In this document: positions 7,085 through 41,402 of the stretch, piece after piece | Layout: every line of letters starts with the position of its first letter | Numbering within the stretch: the first letter of the stretch is position 1 | Source of the DNA: Eledone cirrhosa | Taxonomy: Eukaryota | Reading direction: 5' to 3' | Length of the DNA: 64,000 bases | NCBI GenBank assembly: GCA_964016885.1 | Contig: OZ024742.1 | Span: 22,258,001 to 22,322,000, forward strand | Position numbers and translations under genes: made by a program | Notes under the pieces: model-generated | Database searches by the model: none | What the model saw: only the letters and a program-made list of their open reading frames with translations | What the model was told of the DNA's origin: nothing

Positions 7085-7407
7085 TCATTCATCATCATCA
7101 TTTCATTTTACGTCCACTTTTCCCTGCTTGCAAGGGTGGGACGGGAACTGATTCTGGCTTGATTTCTACAGCTGGATGCCCTTCCTAACACCAACCTCAT
7201 TTACAGTGAATGGTGGGTGCTTTTTTGCCATGGCACCTCCACGACCACTTTGCAGTGGAATGATAGGGACCTCTCATTTCTACAGCTGAGTAAACTGGAG
7301 CAATGTGAAATAAAGTGCCTTGCTCAAGGAAACAACACATCACCCGGTCTGAGAATTGAACTCCCAACCTTTCGATTGCAAGGCTCTAACCACTAAGCCA
7401 TGTGCCT
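7085..7407 (-). mobile_element. Full-length tRNA-derived SINE with CORE-like centre and RTE-derived tail
   Basis: Reverse complement of 10929-11265 and 18503-18842; A-box-like tggcttagtgg, B-box-like gagttcaattc and a (GAT)n tail. Confidence 0.88.
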
Positions 7408-7631
7408 ATATATATATATATATATAAATATAAATTAGTGAGAATCGTATTTTGGCTTAGGAATTAAGGAAAAACAACTTCCGAGATGTGTGGCAAGTGC
7501 TCGATGATTCAGATGAACCAGAGCTACAACATACGTTAAACACTGAAACGATGGTTAAACAAACATCCGTACAGCCAAAGAAACGACCAAGTAATTCGGG
7601 TCAAACAAATAAAAATATATGTGATTGAAAA

Positions 7632-7665
<34 letters not shown>

Positions 7666-8182
7666 TTGAAAAAAAAAATGAAAACGAAATTTCATTTCTC
7701 ACTCTTAGTATGGCACTTACTTAAATGTAAGTATGTATGTATACGTACATACATATATGTATACAGACGTACAGTAGCATGCACACATATATATTTCGAT
7801 TGCAAGGCTCTAACCACTAAGCCATGTGCCTATATATATATATATATATATAAATATAAATTAGTGAGAATCGTATTTTTGCTTAGGAATTAAGGCAAAA
7901 CAACAAATATATATATATATATATGTAACTATGTATGTATACAGACGTACAGTAGCATGCACATATATATATATATATATATACATATATACATACAGGT
8001 ACACATACATATATGCACGCATCAATATTGAGTGAGTTAAATCGGTCAGGCATACCGAAAACGATAAGTTGAAAAAAAATGAAAACGAAATTTCATTTCT
8101 CACTCTTAGTATGGCACTTACTTAAATGTAAGTATGTATGTATACGTACATACATATATGTATACAGACGTACAGTAGCATG

Positions 8183-8256
<74 letters not shown>

Positions 8257-8613
8257 TACATACAGGTACACATACATATATGCACGCATCAGTTTAGCGG
8301 AGGTTTATTATAACGCCGCTTTGTTCGTTTGTTTCTTAGGCTGCTCAGCCGTTAATTTTCATAAGGAAAGTATATACTTTCGAACGTTCAACTATCTGGC
8401 AGATGGGTAAACGGTGCTGATGATAGCTAACAAGCTTGAAACTAGTACATCGTTCCTGTGTCAGTGTTGAACAAAAAGGTGACGTGGTTGCCTTAACACC
8501 GTATGGCATAAATTCAGGCTGTTCGGTTTGTTGACAAACAAACGAACAAAGCGGCGTTATAATGAACGTCCGCTAAACTGATGCGTGCATATATGTATGT
8601 GTACCTGTATGTA

Positions 8614-8647
<34 letters not shown>

Positions 8648-8880
8648 CATGCTACTGTACGTCTGTATACATATATGTATGTACGTATACATACATAGTT
8701 ACATATATATATATATATATTTGTTGTTTTGCCTTAATTCCTAAGCAAAAATACGATTCTCACTAATTTATATTTATATATATATATATATAGGCACATG
8801 GCTTAGTGGTTAGAGCCTTGCAATCGAAAGGTTGGGAGTTCAATTCTCAGACCGGGTGATGTGTTGTTTCCTTGAGCAAG
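7319..8880. repeat. Complex local inverted and direct duplication
   Basis: ~8133-8334 pairs with 8536-8696 around a 201-nt spacer; 8697-8880 is an inverted copy of 7795-7930 and 7319-7478; 7660-7790 is directly repeated at 8063-8190. Confidence 0.9.
8410..8454 (+). ncRNA. Minimal type-I hammerhead ribozyme of Penelope type
   Basis: AACGGUG-CUGAUGA-U-AGCU-AACA-AGCU-U-GAAA-CUAG-U-A-CAUCGUU: 7-bp stem I, 4-bp stem II closed by U.U, palindromic ACUAGU stem III and GUA cleavage triplet. Confidence 0.78.
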
Positions 8881-11635: not shown

Positions 11636-11910
11636 ATGATTGTTCATATATTGTCAAAGTTCTTTCGTCACACATTCTGTGACCTCTTCAGTGACCGGGG
11701 ATTCTTTTCTTTGTTTTTGTGCCTCTCCTTTGTTCTGTCCTACGCCATCTTGTTTTTGTGTGTGTTGTGTGCTAAGTTTGCGCATGTATTACATCCGGGT
11801 GTCTGTGTGTGTTTATATTTGGCAATATGACCCTCCCAAAGTATAACAATATCGGTTTCAACACACGTTTTCAGATAAAGAATCTTGCTAAACAAATTCA
11901 GAAACGAAAT
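11636..11910. mobile_element. Penelope-like terminal remnant (module B then module A) between (TA)n tracts
   Basis: Same modules as 1620-1935 in a different relative orientation; a third diverged module A lies at ~16020-16100. Confidence 0.55.
11653..11695 (-). ncRNA. Minimal type-I hammerhead-ribozyme motif
   Basis: Minus strand: GUCA-CUGAAGA-G-GUCAC-AGAAUGU-GUGAC-GAAA-GAAC-U-U-UGAC; perfect 4-bp stem I and 5-bp stem II. Confidence 0.68.
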
Positions 11911-23504: not shown

Positions 23505-24260
23505 CCTTTACACTGTGGTCAGTGGATACATATATTATGAGAGTGGTGGTCACATGACCACTACATTGAGGTCAGTTGATACATATATTATGAGAGTAGT
23601 GGTCACATGACCACTACACTGTGGTCATCACCACCGTCATCATTTTACGTCCGCTTTTCCCTGCTTGCAAGGGTGGGACGGGTCTTATTCAGCACAGCAT
23701 CTCTCGACTTGTCACGGTCCTTCGTCATCTCCGCCGTGAGCTTCAGTGATCTGAGGTCTGTTCTCACCACCTCCGCCCATGTTTTTCGTGGTCTACCTCT
23801 ACCACATCTTCCTTCAACTGGCATTTCCTGGCACTTCTTCAACCATCAATCATCCTCCATGCGCATCACATGTCCATACCACTGCAGTCTCCTCTCTCGC
23901 ACACTATATTCTATCCCTCTCAGACACAGTTTCTCTCTCAACACATCCATGCTGGGTCGTTCACACACATTGACATTGCACATCCAACAGAGCATGCTTG
24001 CCTCATTTCTCTCCAGCCGTCACATAGCCTCTGCAGTTGCTCCCCAAGTCTCACTACCATGCAGCATCGCGCTCCTCACACAGGCATCATATAACCGGCC
24101 TTTCGTACGCAGGGAGAAACCCTTCTTCATCAGCAGAGGAAGCAGCTCCCTAAACTTCTTCAGTAGATACATATATTATGAGAGTAGTGGTCACATGACC
24201 ACTACACTCTGTGGTCAGTAGATACATATATTATGAGAGTGGGGGTCATATGACTTCCAC
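23505..24260. repeat. 53-55-bp minisatellite containing a perfect hairpin, interrupted by an RTE
   Basis: gatacatatattatgagagt at 23525, 23578, 24166 and 24221; the unit contains GTAGTGGTCA-ca-TGACCACTAC. Confidence 0.88.
23628..24160 (-). mobile_element. 5'-truncated RTE-clade LINE (C-terminal part, disrupted)
   Basis: Minus-strand KKFRELLPLL...LHGSETW...WYGHVMRM...GRGRPRKTW...[12 protein letters not shown], homologous to 9000-9505. Confidence 0.9.
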
Positions 24261-25129: not shown

Positions 25130-26790
25130 CACACTGAAAAGTAGTTGTTTTGGTGCCACAACAAAAAGTACCCAGTCCACACTGTAAAGTGGTCATGTAG
25201 GTGTAAATGACAAAAAGTACCCAGCCCACACTGCAAAGTAGTCATGTAGGTGTAAATGACAAAAAGTACACAGTCCACACTGTAAAGTGGTCATGTAGGT
25301 GTAAATGACAAAAAGTACCCAGTCCACACTGTAAAGTGGTCATGTAGGTGTAAATGACAAAAAGTACCCAGCCCACACTGCAAAGTAGTCATGTAGGTGT
25401 AAATGACAAAAAGTACACAGTCCACACTGTAAAGTGGTCATGTAGGTGTCATGACAAAAAGTACACAGTCCACACTGTAAAGTGGTCATGTAGGTGTAAA
25501 TGACAAAAAGTACCCAGTCCACACTGTAAAGTGGTCATGTAGGTGTAAATGACAAAAAGTACCCAGCCCACACTGTAAAGTGGTCATGTAGGTGTAAATG
25601 ACAAAAAGTACCCAGTCCACACTGTAAAGTGGTCATGTAGGTGTAAATGACAAAAAGTACACAGTCCACACTGTAAAGTGGTCATGTAGGTGTCATGACA
25701 AAAAGTACCCAGTCCACACTGTAAAGTGGTCATGTAGGTGTAAATGACAAAAAGTACACAGTCCACACTGTAAAGTGGTCATGTAGGTGTCATGACAAAA
25801 AGTACCCAGTCCACACTGTAAAGTGGTCATGTAGGTGTAAATGACAAAAAGTACACAGTCCACACTGTAAAGTGGTCATGTAGGTGTAAATGACAAAAAG
25901 TACCCAGTCCACACTGTAAAGTGGTCATGTAGGTGTAAATGACAAAAAGTACCCAGTCCACACTGTAAAGTGGTCATGTAGGTGTAAATGACAAAAAGTA
26001 CCCAGTCCACACTGTAAAGTGGTCATGTAGGTGTAAATGACAAAAAGTACACAGTCCACACTGTAAAGTGGTCATGTAGGTGTAAATGACAAAAAGTACA
26101 CAGTCCACACTGTAAAGTGGTCATGTAGGTGTCATGACAAAAAGTACCCAGTCCACACTGTAAAGTGGTCATGTAGGTGTAAATGACAAAAAGTACACAG
26201 TCCACACTGTAAAGTGGTCATGTAGGTGTAAATGACAAAAAGTACACAGTCCACACTGTAAAGTGGTCATGTAGGTGTAAATGACAAAAAGTACCAAGTC
26301 CACACTGTAAAGTGGTCATGTAGGTGTAAATGACAAAAAGTACCCAGCCCACACTGTAAAGTGGTCATGTAGGTGTAAATGACAAAAAGTACACAGTCCA
26401 CACTGTAAAGTGGTCATGTAGGTGTAAATGACAAAAAGTACACAGTCCACACTGTAAAGTGGTCATGTAGGTGTCATGACAAAAAGTACCCGGCCCACAC
26501 TGAAAGTGGTTGTGTTGGTGTCATGAAAAAAAAAAAGCCCACACGGTAAAGTGGTCATGTAGATGTCACAACAAAACGTACCCAGTCCACACTGTAAAGT
26601 GGTCATTTTGGTGTCACGATAAAAAGCACCCAGCCCACATTTTAAAATGGTCATGCTGGTGTCATGACAAAAAAAACCCAGCCCACACTGTAAAGTGGTG
26701 ATGTAGGTGACACGACAAAAAGCACCCAGCCCACACTGTAAAGTAGTCATGTAGGTGTCACAACAAAAGGTGCCAGTACTCACTGTAAAG
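25130..26790 (+). repeat. 49/48-bp minisatellite, ~34 copies
   Basis: Unit cacactgtaaagtggtcatgtaggtgtaaatgacaaaaagtacccagtc; homogeneous centre with diverged terminal units. Confidence 0.95.
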
Positions 26791-27176: not shown

Positions 27177-30100
27177 GGTGGTGGTGGTGATGGTGATTGT
27201 GGTTGTGGTGATGGAGCTGGTGGTGATGGTGGTGGTGATGGAGATGGTGGTTTTGGTGATGGAGGTGGTGGTGATTGTGGTTGTGGTGATGGAGGTGGTG
27301 GTGATGGTGGTGGTGATGGTGATGGTGGTTGTGGTGATGGAGGTGGTGGTGATGGAGGTTGTGGTTGTGGTGATGGAGCTGGTGGTGATGGTGGTGGTGA
27401 TGGTGATGGTGGTTGTGGTGATGGAGGTGGTGGTGATGGTGGTGATGGTGATGGAGGTTGTGGTGATGGTGGTGGTGGTGATGGTGGTGGTGGTGGTGAT
27501 GGAGGTTGTGGTGATGGTGGTGGTGATGGTGATGGTGGTTGTGGTGATGGAGGTGGTGGTGATGGTGATTGTGGTTGTGGTGATGGAGCTGGTGGTGATG
27601 GTGGTGGTGATGGTGATGGTGGTTGTGGTGATGGAGGTGGTGGTGATGGTGGTGATGGTGATGGAGGTTGTGGTGATGGTGGTTGTGTTGATGGTGGTTG
27701 TGGTGATGGTGGTTGTGGTGATGGTGGTTGTGGTGATGGAGGTGGTGGTGATGGTGGTTGTGGTGATGGTGGTTGTGGTGATGGTGGTTGTGGTGATGGT
27801 GGTGGTGGTGATGGAGGTTGTGGTGATGGTGGTGGTGGTGATGGTGGTGGTGGTGATGGAGGTGGTGGTGATGGAGGTGGTGGTGATGGTGGTGGTGGTG
27901 ATGGTGGTTGTGGTGATGGTGCTGTGGTGATGGTGGTGGTGGTGATGGAGGAGGTGGTGATGGTGGTTGTGGTGACGGTGGTTGTGGTGATGGTGGTTGT
28001 GGTGATAGTGGTTGTGGTGATGGTGGCTGTGGTGATGGTGGTGGTGGTGATGGAGGTGGTGGTGATGGCGGTTGTGGTGATGGAGGTGGTGGTGATGGTG
28101 GTGGTGGTGATGGTGGTTGTGGTGATGGAGGTGGTGGTGATGGAGGTGGTGGTGATGGAGGTTGTGGTGATGGAGGTTGTGGTGATGGAGGTTGTGGTGA
28201 TGGAGGTTGTGGTGATGGAGGTTGTGGTGATGGAGGTTGTGGTGATGGTGGTGTGGTGATAGTGGTGGTGGTGATGGTGGTTGTGGTGATGGAGGTGGTG
28301 GTGATGGAGGTTGTGGTGATGGAGGTTGTGGTGATGGTGGTGGTGGTGATGGAGGTTGTGGTGATGGAGGTTGTGGTGATGGTGGTGGTGGTGATGGTGG
28401 TTGTGGTGATGGAGGTGGTGGTGATGGAGGTTGTGGTGATGGAGGTTGTGGTGATGGAGGTTGTGGTGATGGAGGTTGTGGTGATGGAGGTGGTGGTGAT
28501 GGAGGTTGTGGTGATGGAGGTTGTGGTGATGGAGGTGGTGGTGATGGAGGTTGTGGTGATGGTGGTGGTGGTGATGGAGGTTGTGGTGATGGAGGTTGTG
28601 GTGATAGTGGTGGTGGTGATGGAGGTGGTGGTGATGGAGGTTGTGGTGATGGTGGTTGTGGTGATGGAGGTTGTGGTGATAGTGGTGGTGGTGATGGAGG
28701 TTGTGGTGATGGAGGTTGTGGTGATGGAGGTTGTGGTGATGGAGGTGGTGGTGATGGAGGTTGTGGTGATGGTGGTTGTGGTGATGGTGGTGGTGGTGAT
28801 GGTGGTGGTGGTGATGGAGGTTGTGGTGATGGAGGTTGTGGTGATGGTGGTTGTGGTGATGGTGGTGGTGGTGATGGAGGTTGTGGTGATGGAGGTTGTG
28901 GTGATGGAGGTTGTGGTGATGGTGGTTGTGGTGATGGAGGTGGTGGTGATGGAGGTTGTGGTGATGGAGGTGGTGGTGATGGAGGTTGTGGTGATGGAGG
29001 TGGTGGTGATGGTGGTGGTGGTGATGGTGGTTGTGGTGATGGAGGTGGTGGTGATGGTGGTGGTGGTGATGGTGGTTGTGCTGATGGAGGTGGTGGTGAT
29101 GGAGGTTGTGGTGATGGTGGTTGTGGTGATGGAGGTTGTGGTGATGGAGGTGGTGGTGATGGAGGTTGTGGTGATGGAGGTGGTGGTGATGGAGGTTGTG
29201 GTGATGGAGGTGGTGGTGATGGTGGTGGTGGTGATGGTGGTTGTGGTGATGGAGGTGGTGGTGATGGAGGTTGTGGTGATGGAGGTGGTGGTGATGGTGG
29301 TGGTGGTGATGGTGGTTGTGGTGATGGAGGTGGTGGTGATGGTGGTGGTGGTGATGGGGTTGTGGTGATGGGGTGGTGGTGATGGAGGTTGTGGTGATGG
29401 AGGTGGTCGTGATGGTGGTGGTGGTGATGGAGGTTGTGGTGATGGAGGTGGTGGTGATGGAGGTTGTGGTGATGGAGGTGGTGGTGATGGAGGTTGTGGT
29501 GATGGAGGTGGTGGTGATGGTGGTGGTGGTGATGGAGGTTGTGGTGATGGAGGTGGTGGTGATGGAGGTTGTGGTGATGGAGGTGGTGGTGATGGTGGTG
29601 GTGGTGATGGAGGTTGTGGTGATGGAGGTTGTGGTGATGGAGGTTGTGGTGATGGAGGTGGTGGTGATGGAGGTTGTGGTGATGGAGGTGGTGGTGATGG
29701 AGGTTGTGGTGATGGAGGTGGTGGTGATGGTGGTGGTGGTGATGGTGGTTGTGGTGATGGAGGTGGTGGTGATGGTGGTGGTGGTGATGGTGGTTGTGGT
29801 GATGGAGGTGGTGGTGATGGAGGTTGTGGTGATGGTGGTTGTGGTGATGGTGGTGGTGGTGATGGAGGTGTGGTGATGGAGGTTGTGGTGATGGAGGTGG
29901 TGGTGATGGAGGTTGTGGTGATGGAGGTGGTGGTGATGGAGGTGGTGGTGATGGAGGTTGTGGTGATGGAGGTTGTGGTGATGGAGGTTGTGGTGATGGT
30001 GGTGGTGGTGATGGAGTTGTGGTGATGGAGGTGGTGGTGATGGTGGTGGTGGTGATGGTGGTTGTGCTGATGGAGGTGGTGGTGATGGAGGTTGTGGTGA

Positions 30101-33100
30101 TGGTGGTTGTGGTGATGGAGGTGGTGGTGATGGAGATTGTGGTGATGGAGGTTGTGGTGATGGAGGTGGTGGTGATGGTGGTTGTGGTGATGGAGGTGGT
30201 GGTGATGGAGGTTGTGGTGATGGTGGTTGTGGTGATGGTGGTTGTGGTGATGGAGGTGGTGGTGATGGTGGTTGTGGTGATGGAGGTGGTGGTGATGGTG
30301 GTTGTGGTGATGGAGGTGGTGGTGATGGAGGTTGTGGTGATGGAGGTGGTGGTGATGGAGGTTGTGGTGTTGGAGGTGGTGGTGATGGTGGTTGTGGTGA
30401 TGGAGGTTGTGGTGATGGAGGTGGTGGTGATGGAGGTGGTGGTGATGGAGATTGTGGTGTGGTGGTGTGGGAGGGTTGTGGTGATGGAGGTTGTGGTGAT
30501 GGTGGTGGTGGTGATGGAGGTTGTGGTGATGGTGGTTGTGGTGATGGAAGTTGTGGTGATGGTGGTTGTGGTGATGGAGGTGGTGGTGATGGAGGTGGTG
30601 GTGATGGTGGTTGTGGTGATGGTGGTTGTGGTGATGGAGGTGGTGGTGATGGAGGTGGTGGTGATGGTGGTTGTGGTGATGGAGGTGGTGGTGATGGAGG
30701 TTGTGGTGATGGTGGTGGTGGTGATGGAGGTTGTGGTGATGGTGGTTGTGGTGAGGAGTTGTGGTGATGGTGGTTGTGGTGATAGTGGTGGTGGTGATGG
30801 AGGTGGTGGTGATGGTGGTTGTGGTGATGGTGGTTGTGGTGATGGAGGTGGTGGTGATGGAGGTGGTGGTGATGGTGGTTGTGGTGATGGAGGTGGTGGT
30901 GATGGAGGTTGTGGTGATGGTGGTTGTGGTGATGGAAGTTGTGGTGATGGTGGTTGTGGTGTAGTGGTGGTGGTGATGGAGGTGGTGGTGATGGTGGTTG
31001 TGGTGATGGTGGTGTGGTGATGGAGGTGGTGGTGATGGAGGTGGTGGTGATGGTGGTTGTGGTGATGGTGGTGGTGGTGATGGAGGTTGTGGTGATGGTG
31101 GTGGTGGTGATGGAGGTTGTGGTGATGGTGGTTGTGGTGATGGAAGTTGTGGTGATGGTGGTTGTGGTGATAGTGGTGGTGGTGATGGAGGTGGTGGTGA
31201 TGGTGGTTGTGGTGATGGTGGTTGTGGTGATGGAGGTGGTGGTGATGGAGGTGGTGGTGATGGTGGTTGTGGTGATGGAGGTGGTGGTGATGGAGGTTGT
31301 GGTGATGGTGGTTGTGGTGATGGAGGTGGTGGTGATGGTGGTGGTGGTGATGGTGGTTGTGGTGATGGAGGTGGTGGTGATGGTGGTTGTGGTGATAGTG
31401 GTGGTGGTGATGGAGGTTGTGGTGATGGAGGTGGTGGTGATGGTGGTGGTGGTGATGGTGGTTGTGGTGATGGAGGTTGTGGTGATGGTGGTTGTGGTGA
31501 TGTGGTGGTGGTGATGGAGGTTGTGGTGATGGAGGTGGTGGTGATGGTGGTGGTGGTGATGGTGGTTGTGGTGATGGAGGTGGTGGTGATGGTGGTTGTG
31601 GTGATGGAGGTGGTGGTGATGGTGGTTGTGGTGATGGAGGTGGTGGTGATGGAGGTTGTGGTGATGGAGGTTGTGGTGATGGAGGTGGTGGTGATGGAGG
31701 TTGTGGTGATGGAGGTGGTGGTGATGGAGGTTGTGGTGATGGTGGTTGTGGTGATGGAGGTTGTGGTGATGGTGGTTGTGGTGATGGAGGTTGTGGTGAT
31801 GGAGGTTGTGGTGATGGTGGTGGTGGTGATGGAGGTGGTGGTGATGGAGGTTGTGGTGATGGTGGTTGTGGTGATGGAGGTGGTGGTGATGGAGGTTGTG
31901 GTGATGGAGGTTGTGGTGATGGAGGTTGTGGTGATGGAGGTTGTGGTGATGGTGGTGGTGGTGATGGAGGTGGTGGTGATGGAGGTTGTGGTGATGGTGG
32001 TTGTGGTGATGGAGGTGGTGTTGATGGTGGTGGTGGTGATGGTGGTTGTGGTGATGGTGGTTGTGGTGATGGAGGTGGTGGTGATGGAGGTTGTGGTGAT
32101 GGAGGTGGTGGTGATGGAGGTTGTGGTGATGGAGGTGGTGGTGATGGAGGTTGTGGAGATGGTGGTTGTGCTGATGGAGGTGGTGGTGATGGTGGTTGTG
32201 GTGATGGAGGTGGTGGTGATGGAGATTGTGGTGATGGAGGTTGTGGTGATGGAGGTTGTGGTGATGGTGGTGGTGGTGATGGAGGTGGTGGTGATGGTGG
32301 TTGTGGTGATGGAGGTGGTGGTGATGGAGGTTGTGGTGATGGTGGTTGTGGTGATGGTGGTTGTGGTGATGGAGGTTGTGGTGATGGAGGTTGTGGTGAT
32401 GGAGGTTGTGGTGATGGAGGTTGTGGTGATGGAGGTTGTGGTGATGGTGGTTGTGGTGATGGAGGTTGTGGTGATGGAGGTTGTGGTGATGGAGGTGGTG
32501 GTGATGGAGGTTGTGGTGATGGTGGTTGTGGTGATGGAGGTTGTGGTGATGGTGGTTGTGGTGATGGTGGTTGTGGTGATGGAGGTTGTGGTGATGGAGG
32601 TGGTGGTGATGGAGGTTGTGGTGATGGAGGTTGTGGTGATGGTGGTTGTGGTGATGGAGGTGGTGGTGATGGAGGTTGTGGTGATGGTGGTTGTGGTGAT
32701 GGAGGTTGTGGTGATGGAGGTTGTGGTGATGGTGGTTGTGGTGGTGGTGGTGGTGGTGATGGAGGTGGTGGTGATGGAGGTTGTGGTGATGGTGGTTGTT
32801 GTGATGGAGGTTGTGGTGATGGTGGTGGTGGTGATGGAGGTGGTGGTGATGGAGGTTGTGGTGATGGAGATTGTGGTGATGGAGGTTGTGGTGATGGAGG
32901 TTGTGGTGATGGTGGTTGTGGTGGTGGTGGTGGTGGTGATGGAGGTTGTGGTGATGGAGGTTGTGGTGATGGAGGTTGTGGTGATGGTGGTTGTGGTGAT
33001 GGAGGTTGTGGTGATGGAGGTGGTGGTGATGGAGGTTGTGGTGATGGTGGTTGTGGTGGTGGTGGTGGTGGTGATGGAGGTGGTGGTGATGGAGGTGGTG

Positions 33101-36100
33101 GTGATGGAGGTTGTGGTGATGGTGGTTGTTGTGATGGAGGTTGTGGTGATGGTGGTGGTGGTGATGGAGGTGGTGGTGATGGAGGTTGTGGTGATGGTGG
33201 TTGTGGTGGTGGTGGTGGTGGTGATGGAGGTGGTGGTGATGGAGGTGGTGGTGATGGTGGTGTGGTGATGGTGGTTGTTGTGATGGAGGTTGTGGTGATG
33301 GAGGTGGTGGTGATGGAAGTTGTGGTGATGGTGGTGGTGGTGATGGAGGTGGTGGTGATGGTGGTTGTGGTGATGGTGGTTGTGGTGATGGTGGTTGTGG
33401 TGATGGTGGTGGTGGTGATGGAGGTTGTGGTGATGGTGGTGGTGGTGATGGTGGTGGTGGTGATGGAGGTGGTGGTGATGGTGGTTGTGGTGATGGAGGT
33501 GGTGGTGATGGAGGTTGTGGTGATGGAGGTTGTGGTGATGGAGGTGGTGTTGATGGTGGTGGTGGTGATGGAGGTGGTGGTGATGGAGGTGGTGGTGATG
33601 GAGGTGGTGGTGATGGAGGTGGTGGTGATGGTGGTGGTGGTGATGGTGCTGTGGTGATGGAGGTGGTGGTGATGGTGGTTGTGGTGATGGAGGTGGTGGT
33701 GATGGAGGTTGTGGTGATGGTGGTGGTGGTGATGGTGGTTGTGGTGATGGAGGTGGTGGTGATGGAGGTGGTGGTGATGGTGGTGGTGGTGATGGTGGTT
33801 GTGGTGATGGAGGTTGTGGTGATGGAGGTTTTGGTGATGGAGGTGGTGGTGATGGTGGTTGTGGTGATGGTGGTGGTGGTGATAGTGGTTGTGGTGATGG
33901 TGGTGGTGGTGATGGTGGTTGTGGTGATGGAGGTGGTGGTGATGGTGGTGGTGGTGATGGTGGTTGGGGTGATGGAGGTTGTGGTGATGGAGGTTGTGGT
34001 GATGGTGGTGGTGGTGATGGAGGTGGTGGTGATGGAGGTGGTGGTGATGGAGGTTGTGGTGATGGTGGTGGTGGTGATGGTGGTTGTGGTGATGGTGGTT
34101 GTGGTGATGGAGGTGGTGGTGATGGAGGTTGTGGTGATAGTGGTGGTGGTGATGGTGGTTGTGGTGATGGAGGTGGTGGTGATGGTGGTTGTGGTGATGG
34201 AGGTTGTGGTGATGGTGGTGGTGGTGATGGTGGTTGGGGTGATGGAGGTTGTGGTGATGGAGGTTGTGGTGATGGTGGTGGTGGTGATGGTGGTTGTGGT
34301 GATGGTGGTTGTGGTGATGGAGGTGGTGGTGATGGAGGTGGTGGTGATGGAGGTTGTGGTGATGGTGGTGGTGGTGATGGTGGTTGTGGTGATGGTGGTT
34401 GTGGTGATGGAGGTGGTGGTGATGGAGGTGGTGGTGATGGAGGTTGTGGTGATGGTGGTTGTGGTGATGGTGGTTGTGGTGATGGTGGTTGTGGTGATGG
34501 AGGTGGTGGTGATGGTGGTTGTGGTGATGGAGGTGGTGGTGATGGAGGTTCTGGTGATGGTGGTGGTGGTGATGGCGGTTGTGGTGATGGAGGTTGTGGT
34601 GATGGTGGTGGTGGTGATGGTGGTGGTGGTGATGGTGGTGGTGGTGATGGTGGTTGTGGTGATGGAGGTGGTGGTGATGGAGGTGGTGGTGATGGTGGTG
34701 GTGGTGATGGTGGTTGTGGTGATGGAGGTTGTGGTGATGGTGGTGGTGGTGATGGTGGTTGTGGTGATGGAGGTGGTGGTGATGGTGGTGGTGGTGATGG
34801 TGGTTGTGGTGATGGAGGTGGTGGTGATGGTGGTTGTGGTGATGGAGGTGGTGGTGATGGAGGTGGTGGTGATGGTGGTGGTGGTGATGGTGGTTGTGGT
34901 GATGGAGGTTGTGGTGATGGTGGTGGTGGTGATGGTGGTTGTGGTGATGGAGGTGGTGGTGATGGTGGTGGTGGTGATGGTGGTTGTGGTGATGGAGGTG
35001 GTGGTGATGGTGGTTGTGGTGATGGAGGTTGTGGTGATGGTGGTGGTGGTGATGGTGGTTGGGGTGATGGAGGTTGTGGTGATGGAGGTTGTGGTGATGG
35101 TGGTGGTGGTGATGGTGGTTGTGGTGATGGTGGTTGTGGTGATGGAGGTGGTGGTGATGGAGGTGGTGGTGATGGAGGTTGTGGTGATGGTGGTGGTGGT
35201 GATGGTGGTTGTGGTGATGGTGGTTGTGGTGATGGAGGTGGTGGTGATGGAGGTGGTGGTGATGGAGGTTGTGGTGATGGTGGTTGTGGTGATGGTGGTT
35301 GTGGTGATGGTGGTTGTGGTGATGGAGGTTGTGGTGATGGAGGTTGTGCTGATGGTGGTGGTGGTGATGGTGGTTGTGGTGATGGAGGTGGTGGTGATGA
35401 TGGTTGTGGTGATGGAGGTGGTGGTGATGGAGGTTGTGGTGATGGTGGTGGTGGTGATGGCGGTTGTGGTGATGGAGGTTGTGGTGATGGTGGTGGTGGT
35501 GATGGTGGTGGTGGTGATGGTGGTGGTGGTGATGGTGGTTGTGGTGATGGAGTTGGTGGTGATGGCGGTTGTGGTGATGGAGGTGGTGGTGATGGAGGTG
35601 GTGGTGATGGTGGTGGTGGTGATGGTGGTTGTCGTGATGGTGGTGGTGGTGATGGAGGTTGTGCTGATGGAGGTGGTGGTGATGGAGGTTGTGGTGATGG
35701 TGGTTGTGGTGATGGAGGTTGTGGTGATGGTGGTGGTGGTGATGGTGGTTGTGGTGATGGAAGTTGTGGTGATGGTGGTTGTGGTGATGGAGGTGGTGGT
35801 GATGTAGGTTGTGGTGATGGAGGTTGTGGTGATGGAGGTGGTGGTGATGGAGGTGGTGGTGATGGTGGTGGTGGTGATGGTGGTTGTGGTGATGGAGGTG
35901 GTGGTGATGGAGGTGGTGGTGATGGAAGTTGTGGTGATGGAGGTGGTGGTGATGGAGGTGGTGGTGATGGAGGTGGTGGTGATGGTGGTTGTGGTGATGG
36001 AGGTGGTGGTGATGGTGGTGGTGGTGATGGAGGTGGTGGTGATGGTGGTTGTGGTGATAGAAGTGGTGGTGATGGTGGTTGTGGTGATGGAGGTTGTGGT

Positions 36101-39100
36101 GATGGTGGTTGTGGTGATGGAGGTGGTGGTGATGGTGGTGGTGGTGATGGAGGTTGTGGTGATGGAGGTGGTGGTGATGGTGGTTGTGGTGATGGAAGTC
36201 GTGGTGATGGAGGTTGTGGTGATGGTGGTTGTGGTGATGGTGGTGGTGGTGATGGAAGTTGTGGTGATGGTGGTTGTGGTGATGGAGGTGGTGGTGATGG
36301 TGGTGGTGGTGATGGTGGTTGTTGTGATGGAGGTGGTGGTGATGGTGGTTGTGGTGATGGTGGTTGTGGTGATGGAGGTGGTGGTGATGGTGGTTGTGGT
36401 GATGGAGGTTGTGGTGATGGTGGTGGTGGTGATGGTGGTTGTGGTGATGGAGGTGGTGGTGATGGTGGTTGTGGTGATGGTGGTTGTGGTGATGGAGGTG
36501 GTGGTGATGGTGGTGGTGGTGATGGTGGTTTTTGTGATGGAGGTGGTGGTGATGGTGGTGGTGGTGATGGTGGTTGTGGTGATGGAGGTGGTGGTGATGG
36601 TGGTTGTGGTGATGGAGGTTGTGGTGATGGTGGTGGTGGTGATGGTGGTTGTGGTGATGGAGGTGGTGGTGATGGTGGTTGTGGTGATGGAGGTTGTGGT
36701 GATGGTGGTTGTGGTGATGGTGGTTGTGGTGATGGTGGTGGTGGTGATGGTGGTTGTGGTGAGGGAGGTTTTGGTGATGGAGGTGGTGGTGATGGTGGTG
36801 GTGGTGTTGGTGGTTGTGTTGATGGAGGTGGTGGTGATGGTGGTGGTGGTGTTGGTGGTTGTGTTGATGGAGGTGGTGGTGATGGAGGTTGTGGTGATGG
36901 TGGTTGTGGTGATGGTGGTTGTGGTGATGGTGGTTGTGGTGATGGTGGTGGTGGTGATGGCGGTTGTGGTGATGGAGATTGTGGTGATGGTGGTTGTGGT
37001 GATGGTGGTTGTGGTGATGGTGGTTGTGGTGATGGAGGTTGTGGTGATGGTGGTTGTGGTGATGGAGGTTGTGGTGATGGTGGTGGTGGTGATGGAGGTG
37101 GTGGTGATGGAGGTGGTGGTGATGGTGGTGGTGGTGATGGTGGTGGTGGTGATGGTGGTTGTGGTGATGGAGTTGGTGGTGATGGTGGTGTGGTGATGGT
37201 GGTGGTGGTAATGGTGATTGTGTTGATGGTGGCTGTGGTGATGGTGGTTGTGGTGATGGCGGTTGTGGTGATGGTGGTTGTGGTGATGGTAGTTGGGGTG
37301 GTGGTGGTGGTGGTGGTGATGCTGGTTGTGGTGATGGTGGTGGTGGTGATGGTGGTTGTGGTGATGGTGGTTGTGGTGATGGTGGCTGTGGTGATGGAGG
37401 TGGTGGTGATGGAGGTTGTGGTGATGGTGGTTGTGGTGATGGAGGTTGTGGTGATGGTGGTTGTGGTGATGGTGGTTGTGGTGATGGTGGTTGTGGTGAT
37501 GGTGGTTGTGGTGATGGAGGTGGTGGTGATGGTGGTGGTGGTGATGGTGGTTGTGGTGATGGAGGTGGTGGTGATGGAGGTGGTGGTGATGGTGGTGGTG
37601 GTGATGGTGGTGGTGGTGATGGAGGTGGTGTTGATGGTAGTTGGGGTGATGGTGGTTGTGGTGATGGTGGTTGTGGTGATGGAGGTGGTGGTGATGGTGG
37701 TGGTGGTGATGGAGGTGGTGTTGATGGTAGTTGGGGTGATGGTGGTTGTGGTGATGGTGGTTGTGGTGATGGAGGTGGTGGTGATGGAGATTGTGGTGAT
37801 GGTGATGGTGGTTGTGGTGATGGAGGTGGTGGTGATGGTGGTGGTGGTGATGGTGGTGGTGGTGATGGAGGTTGTGGTGATGGTGATGGTGGTGATGGTG
37901 ATGGTGGGGAAGGTGATGGTGGTTGTGGTGATGGAGGTGATGGTGATGGTGGTGGTGGTGATGGTGGTGGTGGTGATGGTAGTTGGGGTGATGGTGGTGG
38001 TGGTGATGGTGGTGGTGGTGATGGTGGTTGTGGTGATGGTGATGGTGGTGGTGGTGATGGAGGTTGTGGTGATGGAGGTTGTGGTGATGGTGGTTGTGGA
38101 GATGGAGGTGGTGGTGATGGTGGTTGTGGTGATGGTAGTTGGGGTTGTGGTGGTGGTGGTGATGGAGGTTGTGGTGATGGAGGTTGTGGTGATGGAGGTT
38201 GTGGTGATGGAGGTGGTGGTGATGGTGGTTGTGGTGATGGAGGTTGTTGGTGATTATGATGGTGGTGGTGATGGTGGTGGTGGTGGTGATGGTGGTGGTG
38301 GTGATGGTGGTTGTGGTGAGGTTGATGGTGGTGATAGAGGTGGTGGTGATGGAGGTTGTGGTGATGGAGGTTGTGGTGATGGTGGTGATGCTGATGGTGG
38401 GGATGGTGATGGTGGTTGTGGTGATGGAGGTGGTGGTGATGGTGGTTGTGGTGATGGTGGTGGTGGTGATGGTGATGGTGGTGGTGGTGATGGAGGTTGT
38501 GGTGATGGTGGTTGTGGAGATGGAGGTGGTGGTGATGGTGGTTGTGGTGATGGAGGTTGTGGTGATGGAGCTTGTGGTGATGGTGGTGGTGGTGATGGTG
38601 GTGATGGTGGTTGTGGTGATGGTGTTTGTTGGTGATTATGGTGGTGGTGGTGATGGTGGTGGTGGTGATGGTGGTTGTGGTGATAGTTGTTGTGGTGATG
38701 GAGGTGGTGGTGGTGGTGGTGGTGGTGGTGATGGAGGTTATGGTGGTGGTGGTGGTGATGGAGGTTGTTGGTGATTATGGTGGTGGTGGTGATGGTGGTG
38801 GTGGTGATGGAGGTGGTGATGGTGGTGGTGGTGGTGATGGAGGTTATGGTGGTGGTGGTGGTGGTGATGGAGGTTGTTGGTGATTATGGTGGTGGTGGTG
38901 ATGGTGGTTGTGGTGATGGTGGTTGTGGTGATGGAGGTGGTGATGGTGGTGGTGGTGGTGATGGAGGTTATGGTGGTGGTGGTGGTGATGGAGGTTGTTG
39001 GTGATTATGGTGGTGGTGGTGATGGTGGTGGTGGTGATGGTGGTAGTGGTGATTGAGGTGTTGGTGACGGTGGTGGTGGTGAAGGTGGTTGTGGTGATGG

Positions 39101-41402
39101 TGGTTGTGGTGATGGTGATGCTGGGGATGGTGATGGTGTTTGTGGTGATGGAGGTGGTGGTGATGGAGGTGATGGTGATGGAGGTGGTGTGATGGAGGTT
39201 GTGGTGATGGTGGTTGTGGTGATGGTGGTGCTGGTGATGGAGGTTGTGGTGATGGTGGTGATGGTGGTGGTGGTGATTGAGGTTGTGGTGATGGTGGTTG
39301 TGGTGATGGAGGTGGTGGTGATGGTGGTGGTGATGGTGGTTGTGGTGATGGTTGTTGTGGTGATGGAGGTGGTTGTGATGGAGGTTGTGGTGATGGTGGT
39401 TGTGGTGATGGAGGTGGTGGTGATGTTGGTGGTGGTGATTGAGGTTGTGGTGATGGTGGTGGTGGTGATGGTGGTTGTGGTGATGGTGGTTGTGGTGATG
39501 GTGGTGGTGGTGATGGAGGTTGTGGTGATGGAGGTGGTGGTGATGGTGGTTGTGGTGATGGTGGTGGTGGTGATGGTGGTTGTGGTGATGGAGGTTGTGG
39601 TGATGGTGGTTGTGGTGATGGAGGTGGTGGTGATGGAGGTTGTGGTGATGTGGTGGTGGTGATGGAGGTTGTGGTGATGGAGGTGGTGGTGATGGTGGTT
39701 GTGGTGATGGTGGTTGTGGTGATGGAGGTTGTGGTGATGGTGGTTGTGGTGATGGAGGTGGTGGTGATGGTGGTGGTGGTGATGGAGGTTGTGGTGATGG
39801 AGGTGGTGTTGATGGTGGTTGTGGTGATGGAGGTGGTGGTGATGGAGGTTGTGGTGATGGTGGTGGTGGTGATGGAGGTTGTGGTGATGGAGGTTGTGGT
39901 GATGGTGGTGGTGGTGATGGAGGTTGTGGTGATGGTGGTGGTGGTGATGGAGATTGTGGTGATGGAGGTGGTGGTGATGGTGGTTGTGGTGATGGAGGTG
40001 GTGGTGATGGAGGTTGTGGTGATGGTGGTGGTGGTGATGGAGGTTGTGGTGATGGAGGTGGTGGTGATGGTGGTTGTGGTGATGGAGGTGGTGGTGATGG
40101 AGGTTGTGGTGATGGTGGTGGTGGTGATGGTGGTTGTGGTGATGGTGGTGGTGGTGATGGAGGTTGTGGTGATGGAGTTGGTGGTGATGGTGATTGTGGT
40201 GATGGTGGTTGTGGTGATGGTGGTGGTGGTGATGGTGGTTGTGGTGATGGCGGTTGTGGTGATGGAGGTGGTGGTGATGGTGGTGGTGGTGATGGCGGTG
40301 GTGGTGATGGTGGTTGTGGTGATGGAGGTTGTGGTGATGTAGGTGGTGGTGATGGAGGTTGTGATGATGGAGGTGGTGGTGATGGTGGTTGTGGTGATGG
40401 TGGTTGTGGTGATGGCTGTTGTGGTGATGGAGGTGGTGGTGATGGTGGTTGTGGTGATGGAGGTGGTGGTGATGGAGGTGGTGGTGATGGAGTTGGTGGT
40501 GATGGTGATTGTGGTGATGGTGGATGTGGTGATGGAGGTGGTGGTGATGGTGATTTGGTGATGGTGGATGTGGTGATGGAGTTGGTGGTGATGGTGATTG
40601 TGGTGATGGTGGTTGTGGTGATGGTGGTTGTGGTGATGTCTGTTGTGGTGATGGAGGTGGTGGTGTTGGAGGTTGTTGTGATGGAGGTGGTGGTGATGGT
40701 GGTTGTGGTGATGGAGGTGGTGGTGATGGAGGTTTTGGTGATGGTGGTTGTGGTGATGGAGGTGGTGGTGATGGAGGTGGTGGTGATGGAGTTGGTGGTG
40801 ATGGTGATTGTGGTGATGGTGGTTGTTGTGATGGCTGTTGTGGTGATGGTGGTTGTGGTGATGGCGGTTGTGGTGATGGAGGTGGTGGTGATGGTGGTTG
40901 TGGTGATGGAGGTTGTGGTGATGGAGGTGGTGGTGATGGTGGTTGTGGTGATGGAGGTGGTGGTGATGGTGGTTGTGGGAATAGAGGTTGTGGTGTTGGT
41001 GGTGGTGGGGATGGTGGTGGTTGTGATGGAGGTTGTGGTGATGGAGGTGGTGGTGATGGTGCTTGTGGTGATGGAGGTTGTGGTGATTGGGGTGATGGTG
41101 GTGGTGGTGATGGATGTTGCAGTGGTGATGATGGTGGTTGTGGTGTTGGTGGTGACGGTGTTGATGATGGGGGTTGTGGTGATGGAGGTGGTAGTGATGG
41201 AGGTTGTGGCGATGGTAGTTTGGGTGATGGAGGTGATGAAGGTTGTGGTGATGGAGGTTGTGGTGATGGTGGTGGTAGTTATGGTGGTGGTGGTGATGGT
41301 GGTGGTGGTGATGGTGGTTGTGGTGATGGAGGTGGTGGTGATGGTGGTGGTGGTGATGGAGGTTGTGGTGATGGAGGTGGTGGTGATGGAGGTTGTGGTG
41401 AT
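27177..41402. repeat. ~14.2-kb G-rich 15-bp satellite, (GGTGATGG[A/T]GGT[G/T]GT)n, roughly 950 units
   Basis: Directly visible 15-bp period with two dimorphic sites and more degenerate ends. Confidence 0.97.

Follow-up and report, generated by a model that had tools for sequence, protein, structure and literature searches.

The window, by which we mean the whole 64,000-nucleotide stretch of Eledone cirrhosa DNA analysed here, contains a hammerhead ribozyme motif at positions 8410-8454 of its plus strand. The motif has both catalytic boxes, a 7-bp stem I (one G.U pair), a 4-bp stem II based on a U.U pair and an ACUAGU palindrome as helix III, with cleavage predicted after A8447 (GUA). The initial annotation had described all of this, from sequence and boxes to stems, palindrome, U.U pair and cut site, and every item stands. 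Taken in full, the type I hammerhead covers 8404-8458 (plus strand): an outer helix, internal loop 1 (UAA x U), a 6-bp helix I and the core, then the U.U pair with the 4-bp helix II and its AACA loop, and helix III on ACUAGU. A descriptor of the full hammerhead finds a single match in the window, at 8417, against a mean of 0.0 in 100 block shuffles. From this, and from the genome-wide pattern matches set against reversed controls that are given below, the motif is no product of chance. Rfam does return a hammerhead as best match (HH9), but at 18.5 bits, below the gathering score of 52. The lowest-energy fold predicted for the single window copy keeps helices I and II and mispairs the core. We rejected two other sets of CUGA..GAAA matches in the window: one at 24090-24133, inside a LINE-like fragment that we take to be of RTE type, and those at 54-63 kb, which are point variants of a 44-bp satellite.

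The ribozyme lies within an insertion made of two opposed arms, whose unit positions we number from the predicted cut site. The right arm (8336-8707, plus strand) carries unit positions 393-504 and then 1 to about 286, and ends at a site we call S1 against (TA)n. The inverted arm (8025-8334, minus strand) runs from unit 387 to 89 and stands head to head with the right arm, with one extra base between them. The inverted arms align as 8123-8334 with 8536-8707, enclosing 201 nt (8335-8535), and outside their TA run they show two mismatches over 73 positions and two over 61. Because a minus arm of 387-89 is joined to a plus arm that runs from 393 round to about 286, the enclosed spacer (plus strand; unit 393-504 and 1-88) is simply the part of the unit covered once. 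It had been called a 201-nt unique spacer. The length is right; the sequence is single only inside the insertion and is repeated genome-wide. A first look at the genome gave 670 candidates. Scoring of 40 of these yielded 43 matches, and 40 (the window copy itself included) cover the full length with 100% identity. Farther out, the outermost left piece (7661-7794, minus strand; unit 348 to 218) starts at a second site, S2, against (TA)n at about 7636-7660. The tail between S1 and S2, 64 nt in family A, consists of a terminal hairpin and a T tract, and here falls inside the inverted arm (8064-8127, minus strand). No protein-coding frame of at least 120 aa is present across 7661-8707.

Host DNA around the insertion has been duplicated too. 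The segment at 7794-8024 (minus strand) is an inverted copy of 8579-8829, comprising unit ~132-286 plus right-flank DNA, and 8723-8880 (plus strand) is an inverted duplicate, 97.5% identical, of the left flank at 7319-7478, with the start of another repeat and the 5' part of a tRNA-like SINE. These inverted flank duplications around and inside the insertion may come from template switching onto target DNA, from later rearrangement or from misassembly. Elsewhere the window contains a TA-flanked repeat at 7420-7630, also found at 84% identity beside locus L055, a 49-bp array at 25161-26758, and a 15-bp GT-rich satellite (27177-41402; ~945 copies, extreme GC skew) next to the 44-bp satellite (42207-64000; ~496 copies). 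Pfam gave nothing useful on 14 window frames, and the Rfam miRNA matches in the window were discarded as TA-repeat artefacts, all below their gathering scores.

What class of hammerhead is this? The canonical metazoan type I form has a 6-bp helix I, a 4-bp helix II, a helix III of 1-2 bp with a palindromic loop and an intact core, and should cleave weakly as a single copy and more readily when dimerised (PMC4209133). The minimal hammerhead of Penelope-like elements (PLEs) has a helix II of 7-8 bp, a helix I of 4-5 bp, an ill-defined loop 1 plus an additional nucleotide after A9. Our family has a helix I of 6 bp and a loop 1 that is defined; helix II and its loop take up 14 nt, and helix III has 1-2 bp with a palindromic loop. 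By its predicted structure the window hammerhead is the canonical metazoan form, apart from the G10.1-C11.1 pair, and the annotation's label of a minimal PLE hammerhead has to go: helix I, helix II and loop 1 all fit the canonical definition instead (PMC4209133). The annotation was right that the U.U pair is non-canonical. The canonical G10.1-C11.1 pair is absent from groups A-C, which close helix II on U.U, and a sister group of 10,595 matches has G-C at the same place; read from this distribution, the U.U pair is a lineage trait. By analogy with the canonical form, the predicted cleavage would probably proceed best in a dimer. Other U.U-based hammerhead-like cores occur in further repeats (L107 at 881, L109 at 758 and L101 at about 1000, minus-strand numbering).

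Conservation was followed in several ways. Among 15 hand-picked variants, 91% of cells pair and 8 of 17 pairs change on both sides, three of them in helix I and four in helix II. The covariation score is 0.356 against 0.154 for shuffles, none of 500 reaching it, with slid controls at 0.097 or less; measures that count pairs or pair types did not beat the shuffles on these 15 variants (137 and 253 of 500). Of 172 copies found through a promoter-like block upstream, all in loci already chosen by ribozyme patterns, 169 lead into a hammerhead, and in 158 the 11 core letters are all intact. Hammerheads allow variation at positions 7 and 17, and it is at N7 and H17 (A, U, C, never G) that the core letters vary among 11 variants present in at least two loci each (44 singletons excluded); one of the 11 has a broken C3/U4 core. 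All 11 have GUA in loop 1 and AANA in loop 2, in register with the Rfam HH9 consensus, and these constant nucleotides may make a putative tertiary contact between the loops. The annotation had asked how other genomic copies behave: they conserve the CUGAUGA/GAAA core and the stems, and the stems covary between groups only 60% identical. Core and stems kept across that distance imply selection on the ribozyme.

The family is large. Three mutually exclusive patterns have 12,538, 15,279 and 10,595 matches genome-wide, with 1, 0 and 0 in the reversed controls; the hammerhead matches thus number at least 38,412 and fall into three related groups. Estimated from these pattern counts, ~38,000 units of ~480 nt would amount to ~18 Mb, or ~0.6% of a 3.0-Gb genome. 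The repeat unit is non-coding and 424-510 nt long (424-504 nt in six natural reference units); reference units A, B and C are 81-92% identical to one another and 60-64% identical to D and E. The family is also young, judging by 40 loci taken from around the first matches to family A, 37 of which align over the spacer, at a median of 97% identity to the window copy. Units are permuted tandems, with no LTR layout. Spacer copies at 100% identity often lie within head-to-tail arrays of ~500 nt, arrays reach 30 complete units, and two or more ribozymes share a strand in 39 of 129 mapped insertions. Predicted folds of circular monomers are strongly stable, with z = -12.6, -9.3 and -11.9 (30 shuffles each); family A is aided here by its TA run, and family E has little TA. 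One poly(A) RNA run filed under another organism code (X7) gave 0 reads on the window and six partial alignments, below 90%, on the TA-rich part of locus L238. The family is present in runs X1, X5 and X6, of unrecorded kind; run X3 gave 0 contigs.

The promoter-like block lies 110-130 nt upstream of the cut and is kept in all groups (30,800 pattern matches, control 0). The 12 letters that open it recur, with no more than one mismatch, at -77 to -79 in five of five host U6, U6atac and MRP loci, namely three separate U6 genes, the best U6atac and RNase MRP. The 12-mer is absent before U2 (both loci scored) and before one RNase P, turns up in 6 of 6,843 background windows, and is exact in five of the six reference units. 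Most other U6 and U6atac matches examined lack it at that position and would be processed copies. In the sequence upstream of the host genes (L130, L131, L132, L247, L290, L175 and L177) U6, U6atac and MRP share a layout of 12-mer at -77 to -79 and TATA at -31, and a CTCCCTT-like element near -260 is common to host U6 and U2. All six units have a TATA-like box 41-42 nt after the 12-mer, about 5 nt shorter than the 46-48 nt of the host genes. The distal CTCCCTT-like element is absent from five of six units, and the nearest 300 nt of U6atac and MRP have none either. A position 78 nt on from the 12-mer is a G at the ribozyme 5' edge in groups A and C and in the extended stem of D and E, but lies inside helix I in the shorter B unit.

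How far this block is a promoter is another matter. Both the 12-mer and the TATA-like box are also within predicted RNA hairpins, and part of their conservation may therefore be structural. Runs of four or more T are missing from the predicted transcribed body in five of six units, none significantly on its own, and we rejected a Pol III signature from T runs on those per-unit values (P 0.05-0.5). A Pol III transcript would also need to pass the T tract of the tail, which is interrupted in several variants. From such sequence features we would put the chance that the unit carries a working promoter at somewhat under even. In the window, the remainder of the block is at 8336-8376 (plus strand), with the TATA-like box at 8370-8376 and the start predicted for an intact unit at about 8401-8406; the 12-mer itself is cut by the inversion junction, which has removed unit 388-392. 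The window copy is an ordinary member of the family and, having a single ribozyme and a broken promoter-like 12-mer, is probably inactive.

The fold-back is best understood from the other insertions, at loci selected by ribozyme or promoter patterns and drawn mostly from the start of contig C1, the window itself being on contig C3. Both orientations are present in 75 of 118 complete insertions. In 73 of them both RNA 3' ends face outward, and 44 have two classifiable ends flanked by (TA)n, the other 29 retaining at least one unclassified end. All 44 pair S1 with S2 (p = 5.7e-14), 25 one way round and 19 the other. That figure was reached after ends without a TA flank had been dropped, L081 re-labelled and the S2 of family B corrected; the tally before filtering was 50 mixed and 3 same-type pairs. 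(TA)n abuts 153 of 170 S1/S2 ends, and the two sites are 62-77 nt apart with the hairpin and T tract between them. Insertion ends lie in (TA)n, where target-site duplications longer than 4 bp would be masked. Junctions between arms are scattered over the whole unit. Of the 75 inverted insertions, at loci chosen through ribozyme patterns, 29 have the ribozyme in both arms and 38 have a single one, in one arm; 6 have several in one arm, and 2 have none.

These are PLE habits. The available text on PLEs describes a tail present at one end only, with partial tandems and an inverted 5'-truncated copy (PMC8557442), and an in vitro study places two adjacent internal reverse-transcription start sites at the bounds of the tail (PMC11167929). 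Partial tandems, an inverted 5'-truncated copy, a one-end tail and a microsatellite target are all seen in our family. As its sequence reads, the fold-back is an insertion architecture and not a design particular to this locus; what the annotation read as a long hairpin with a self-cleaving loop is a pair of opposed cDNA arms belonging to a single insertion. A linear template with classical twin priming would fit the window's inner junction (387 versus 393), but it fails on the sample, with its outer ends fixed at S1 and S2, and we rejected it.

PLE frames adjoin many insertions, which a common (TA)n target leads one to expect. Six loci (L077, L081, L070, L096, L027 and L073) are joined directly to PLE sequence, with no TA run between. 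In L077 a retrozyme arm from S1 runs into a PLE ORF, with the tailed end of the same PLE as the opposite arm. In L081 a PLE arm from the tail-less end runs into retrozyme, opposite the retrozyme's S2 end, and in L070 and L096 a retrozyme S2 arm meets a relative of another PLE, at that relative's tail-less end. These four have readable ends, and again they combine S1 with S2; four out of four (1 in 16 by chance) is no more than suggestive. The far ends in L027 and L073 are unclassified. The joins span three or four PLE families, with no single partner singled out, and PLE frames next to units are joined mid-ORF, at points that vary. A sample of 30 loci approached from the PLE side contains no direct join near the 5' truncation point. 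The annotation had looked for linkage to ORFs with reverse transcriptase and GIY-YIG domains: direct joins exist at these six loci, and in the six PLE families compared the unit is not the terminal repeat of such an ORF.

The PLE family met at the L077 and L081 joins is present in many near-identical copies with an 821-aa open frame (L281, 922-3384), in which DKT, RWT, a CxCX5C linker and a C-terminal nuclease with CxxC and CxH can be picked out by eye. Pfam gave no hit for this family, and among four PLE frames only a sub-threshold RVT_1. The Hydra clade is described as having DKT, RWK-like and CxCX5C linker motifs, a C-terminal nuclease with CxxC and CxH, and a (TA)n target (PMC8557442). By its motifs, the L281 family agrees with that description, but with RWT rather than RWK. 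This Hydra-type PLE is young, and helix II of its terminal hammerhead is unusually long. A different PLE has left pseudo-LTR pieces, 89-90% identical, in the window at 1677-1934 and 11640-11852 (minus strand); its ORF is in L054/L109, and we take it to be Neptune-like. The pieces carry minimal-type hammerheads at 1828-1870 and 11649-11691 (extra nucleotide after A9). The retrozyme is likely mobilised in trans by PLE machinery, most likely that of the Hydra clade.

We consider it highly probable that the window holds a 5'-truncated, two-armed insertion of an ORF-free non-LTR retrozyme that the reverse transcriptase and endonuclease of PLEs, most likely of the Hydra clade, likely copy into (TA)n. 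The parts of this model taken from sequence are how many copies there are and that they are tandem, the covarying stems, the (TA)n targets, the two outer ends that are fixed and the Hydra-type joins; tandem transcription, dimer-assisted cleavage, circularisation and two-site priming by a Hydra-type protein are the parts that we infer. Intact tandem copies would be transcribed through the ribozyme, and neighbouring ribozymes would pair via ACUAGU to cut out a unit-length RNA, which would likely circularise. A Penelope protein would nick both (TA)n strands and start one cDNA at S1 and one at S2, on either side of the hairpin. Both cDNAs would extend for variable lengths across the cut site before being joined head to head, and the overlap of the two arms would give the fold-back. 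Several observations weigh against the model. Only one of nine predicted Xenopus retrozyme dimers cleaved, according to the available text of a preprint (bioRxiv 10.64898/2026.07.22.740005), and insertion by a PLE in vitro is described as not needing hammerhead cleavage (PMC11167929). In the window's group, U.U rather than G10.1-C11.1 closes helix II. To these we add substitutions common to units of one long array, the several PLE partners, the empty sample of 30 from the PLE side and the want of homology to the PLE ends compared.

The array substitutions bear on the template. The 5' stops of the cDNAs are distributed along the unit; of 164, 2 lie no more than 6 nt from the cut site, where a uniform spread would give about 4-5 (the list contains a few spurious short segments). 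With so few stops near the cut, linear cut monomers are not the main template, and the enzyme reads through the cut site, on either a circle or an uncut multimer. The second possibility makes a rival: the same element and PLE machinery, with an uncut linear multimer from an array as template, the ribozyme an accessory with no part in making a circle, and long arrays growing later through unequal exchange. A 14-unit array has 0 substitutions common to several units, a 30-unit array has 9 common to scattered units and a 6-unit sample has 3 common to two units; those in the 30-unit array misfit a single pass round one uniform circle and, with the 6-unit sample, favour the rival. In that 30-unit arm (L154-L174 and L244; G000:C1:5.738-5.752 Mb) variants recur every 3-4 units, a pattern that suggests a multimeric template or later unequal exchange. 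Unprocessed RNA as the PLE's main in vitro substrate (PMC11167929) points the same way, as does the mispaired core in the fold predicted for the window monomer. But core and stems kept across groups 60% identical imply that the ribozyme is selected, and related retrozymes are reported to build up as circles in coral, mussel and axolotl (PMC7229834). We think an uncut template possible, though on the unlikely side.

We find it improbable that the unit is, as the annotation's term pseudo-LTR would have it, a detached terminal piece of an autonomous Penelope element not yet found. In Xenopus, 24 of 57 retrozyme families match known elements, 21 of 22 of them PLEs, at their termini, as the preprint's available text has it (bioRxiv 10.64898/2026.07.22.740005); our unit does have a PLE-type tail, and our comparison covered six PLE families. 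The ends of those six gave only TA-rich or very short matches to the unit, which is no convincing homology, and the unit lives in ORF-free arrays. Its ribozyme is canonical where the PLE pseudo-LTR pieces of the same window have the minimal type, and the varying mid-ORF points at which adjoining frames join also go against a fixed terminal repeat. The annotation's broader wording, a non-autonomous, retrozyme-like element tied to PLEs, fares better, given ORF-free tandem units, S1/S2 ends and PLE joins. That the fold-back is a functional long-hairpin RNA with a self-cleaving loop at this locus is very improbable, for although its near-perfect arms would turn any read-through transcript into long dsRNA, junctions are scattered from insertion to insertion, the ribozyme occurs in arms as well as spacers and the promoter-like 12-mer is broken in this copy.

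The retrozyme model could be taken a step further, and here we are speculating. The unit might be a self-sufficient circular-RNA parasite with a host U6-type promoter inside it and transcription starting at the ribozyme 5' edge, so that cutting and circularisation would package the promoter, which would otherwise go untranscribed, and a dimer of Hydra-clade Penelope protein would copy one RNA from two fixed sites. We doubt that all of this holds together. If it did, cDNA longer than the unit would put a restored promoter in front of the ribozyme.

Two questions about animal retrozymes are at stake, the enzyme behind their spread and the manner of their transcription; for the first, PLEs have so far been proposed from co-occurrence and pseudo-LTR similarity. 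Our family offers evidence for PLE machinery at the level of single insertions, in two fixed starts, one per arm, and in direct joins. With a young, intact candidate protein of 821 aa the link could be tested in the published in vitro PLE assay. The inverted insertions are also a potential source of long dsRNA. The literature searched contains no cephalopod retrozyme and no retrozyme insertion ends, and supplements or Repbase may already contain the family. The main text of an Octopus vulgaris repeat paper, as available, has 0 mentions of 'ribozyme' or 'retrozyme' (PMC13282606); 235 Rfam hammerhead hits are listed for giant squid (PMC6962438).

Two older systems resemble the family in part. 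Newt satellite 2 and the Schistosoma satellite are also hammerhead tandem repeats with an internal promoter, reported as snRNA-type Pol II in the newt and Pol III in the schistosome (PMC2220036). Unlike theirs as described, our putative element is of the host U6/U6atac/MRP type, which U2 and RNase P lack, and has another TATA spacing. The endonuclease-bearing (EN+) PLEs, both Poseidon PAc (PMC11167929) and the Hydra clade (PMC8557442), share with it partial tandems, an inverted 5'-truncated copy, a one-end tail, two start sites and AT-rich or (TA)n targets. The family differs from these published accounts in having no ORF, a tail of 62-77 nt instead of 30-40, and a canonical instead of a minimal ribozyme; it also lacks sequence homology to the six local PLE ends compared.

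The closest relatives are the metazoan non-LTR retrozymes, and on every feature that can be judged from sequence the family is one of them. Like those described (PMC7229834), it has ORF-free tandem units with one type I hammerhead each, low GC, thousands of copies and a strongly self-paired predicted circle. Its weak palindromic helix III recalls the axolotl HHR_Amex1 and its U.U helix II base HHR_Amex2 (PMC7229834). The units are larger than the 170-400 nt given there and inside the 51-972 range of the Xenopus preprint (bioRxiv 10.64898/2026.07.22.740005). Retrozymes seem to lack promoters, in the wording available from one review (PMC7761336), whereas these units carry a promoter-like block. 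And where the retrozyme texts available propose mobilisation by PLEs, in our family S1/S2 insertion ends and PLE joins can be read directly.
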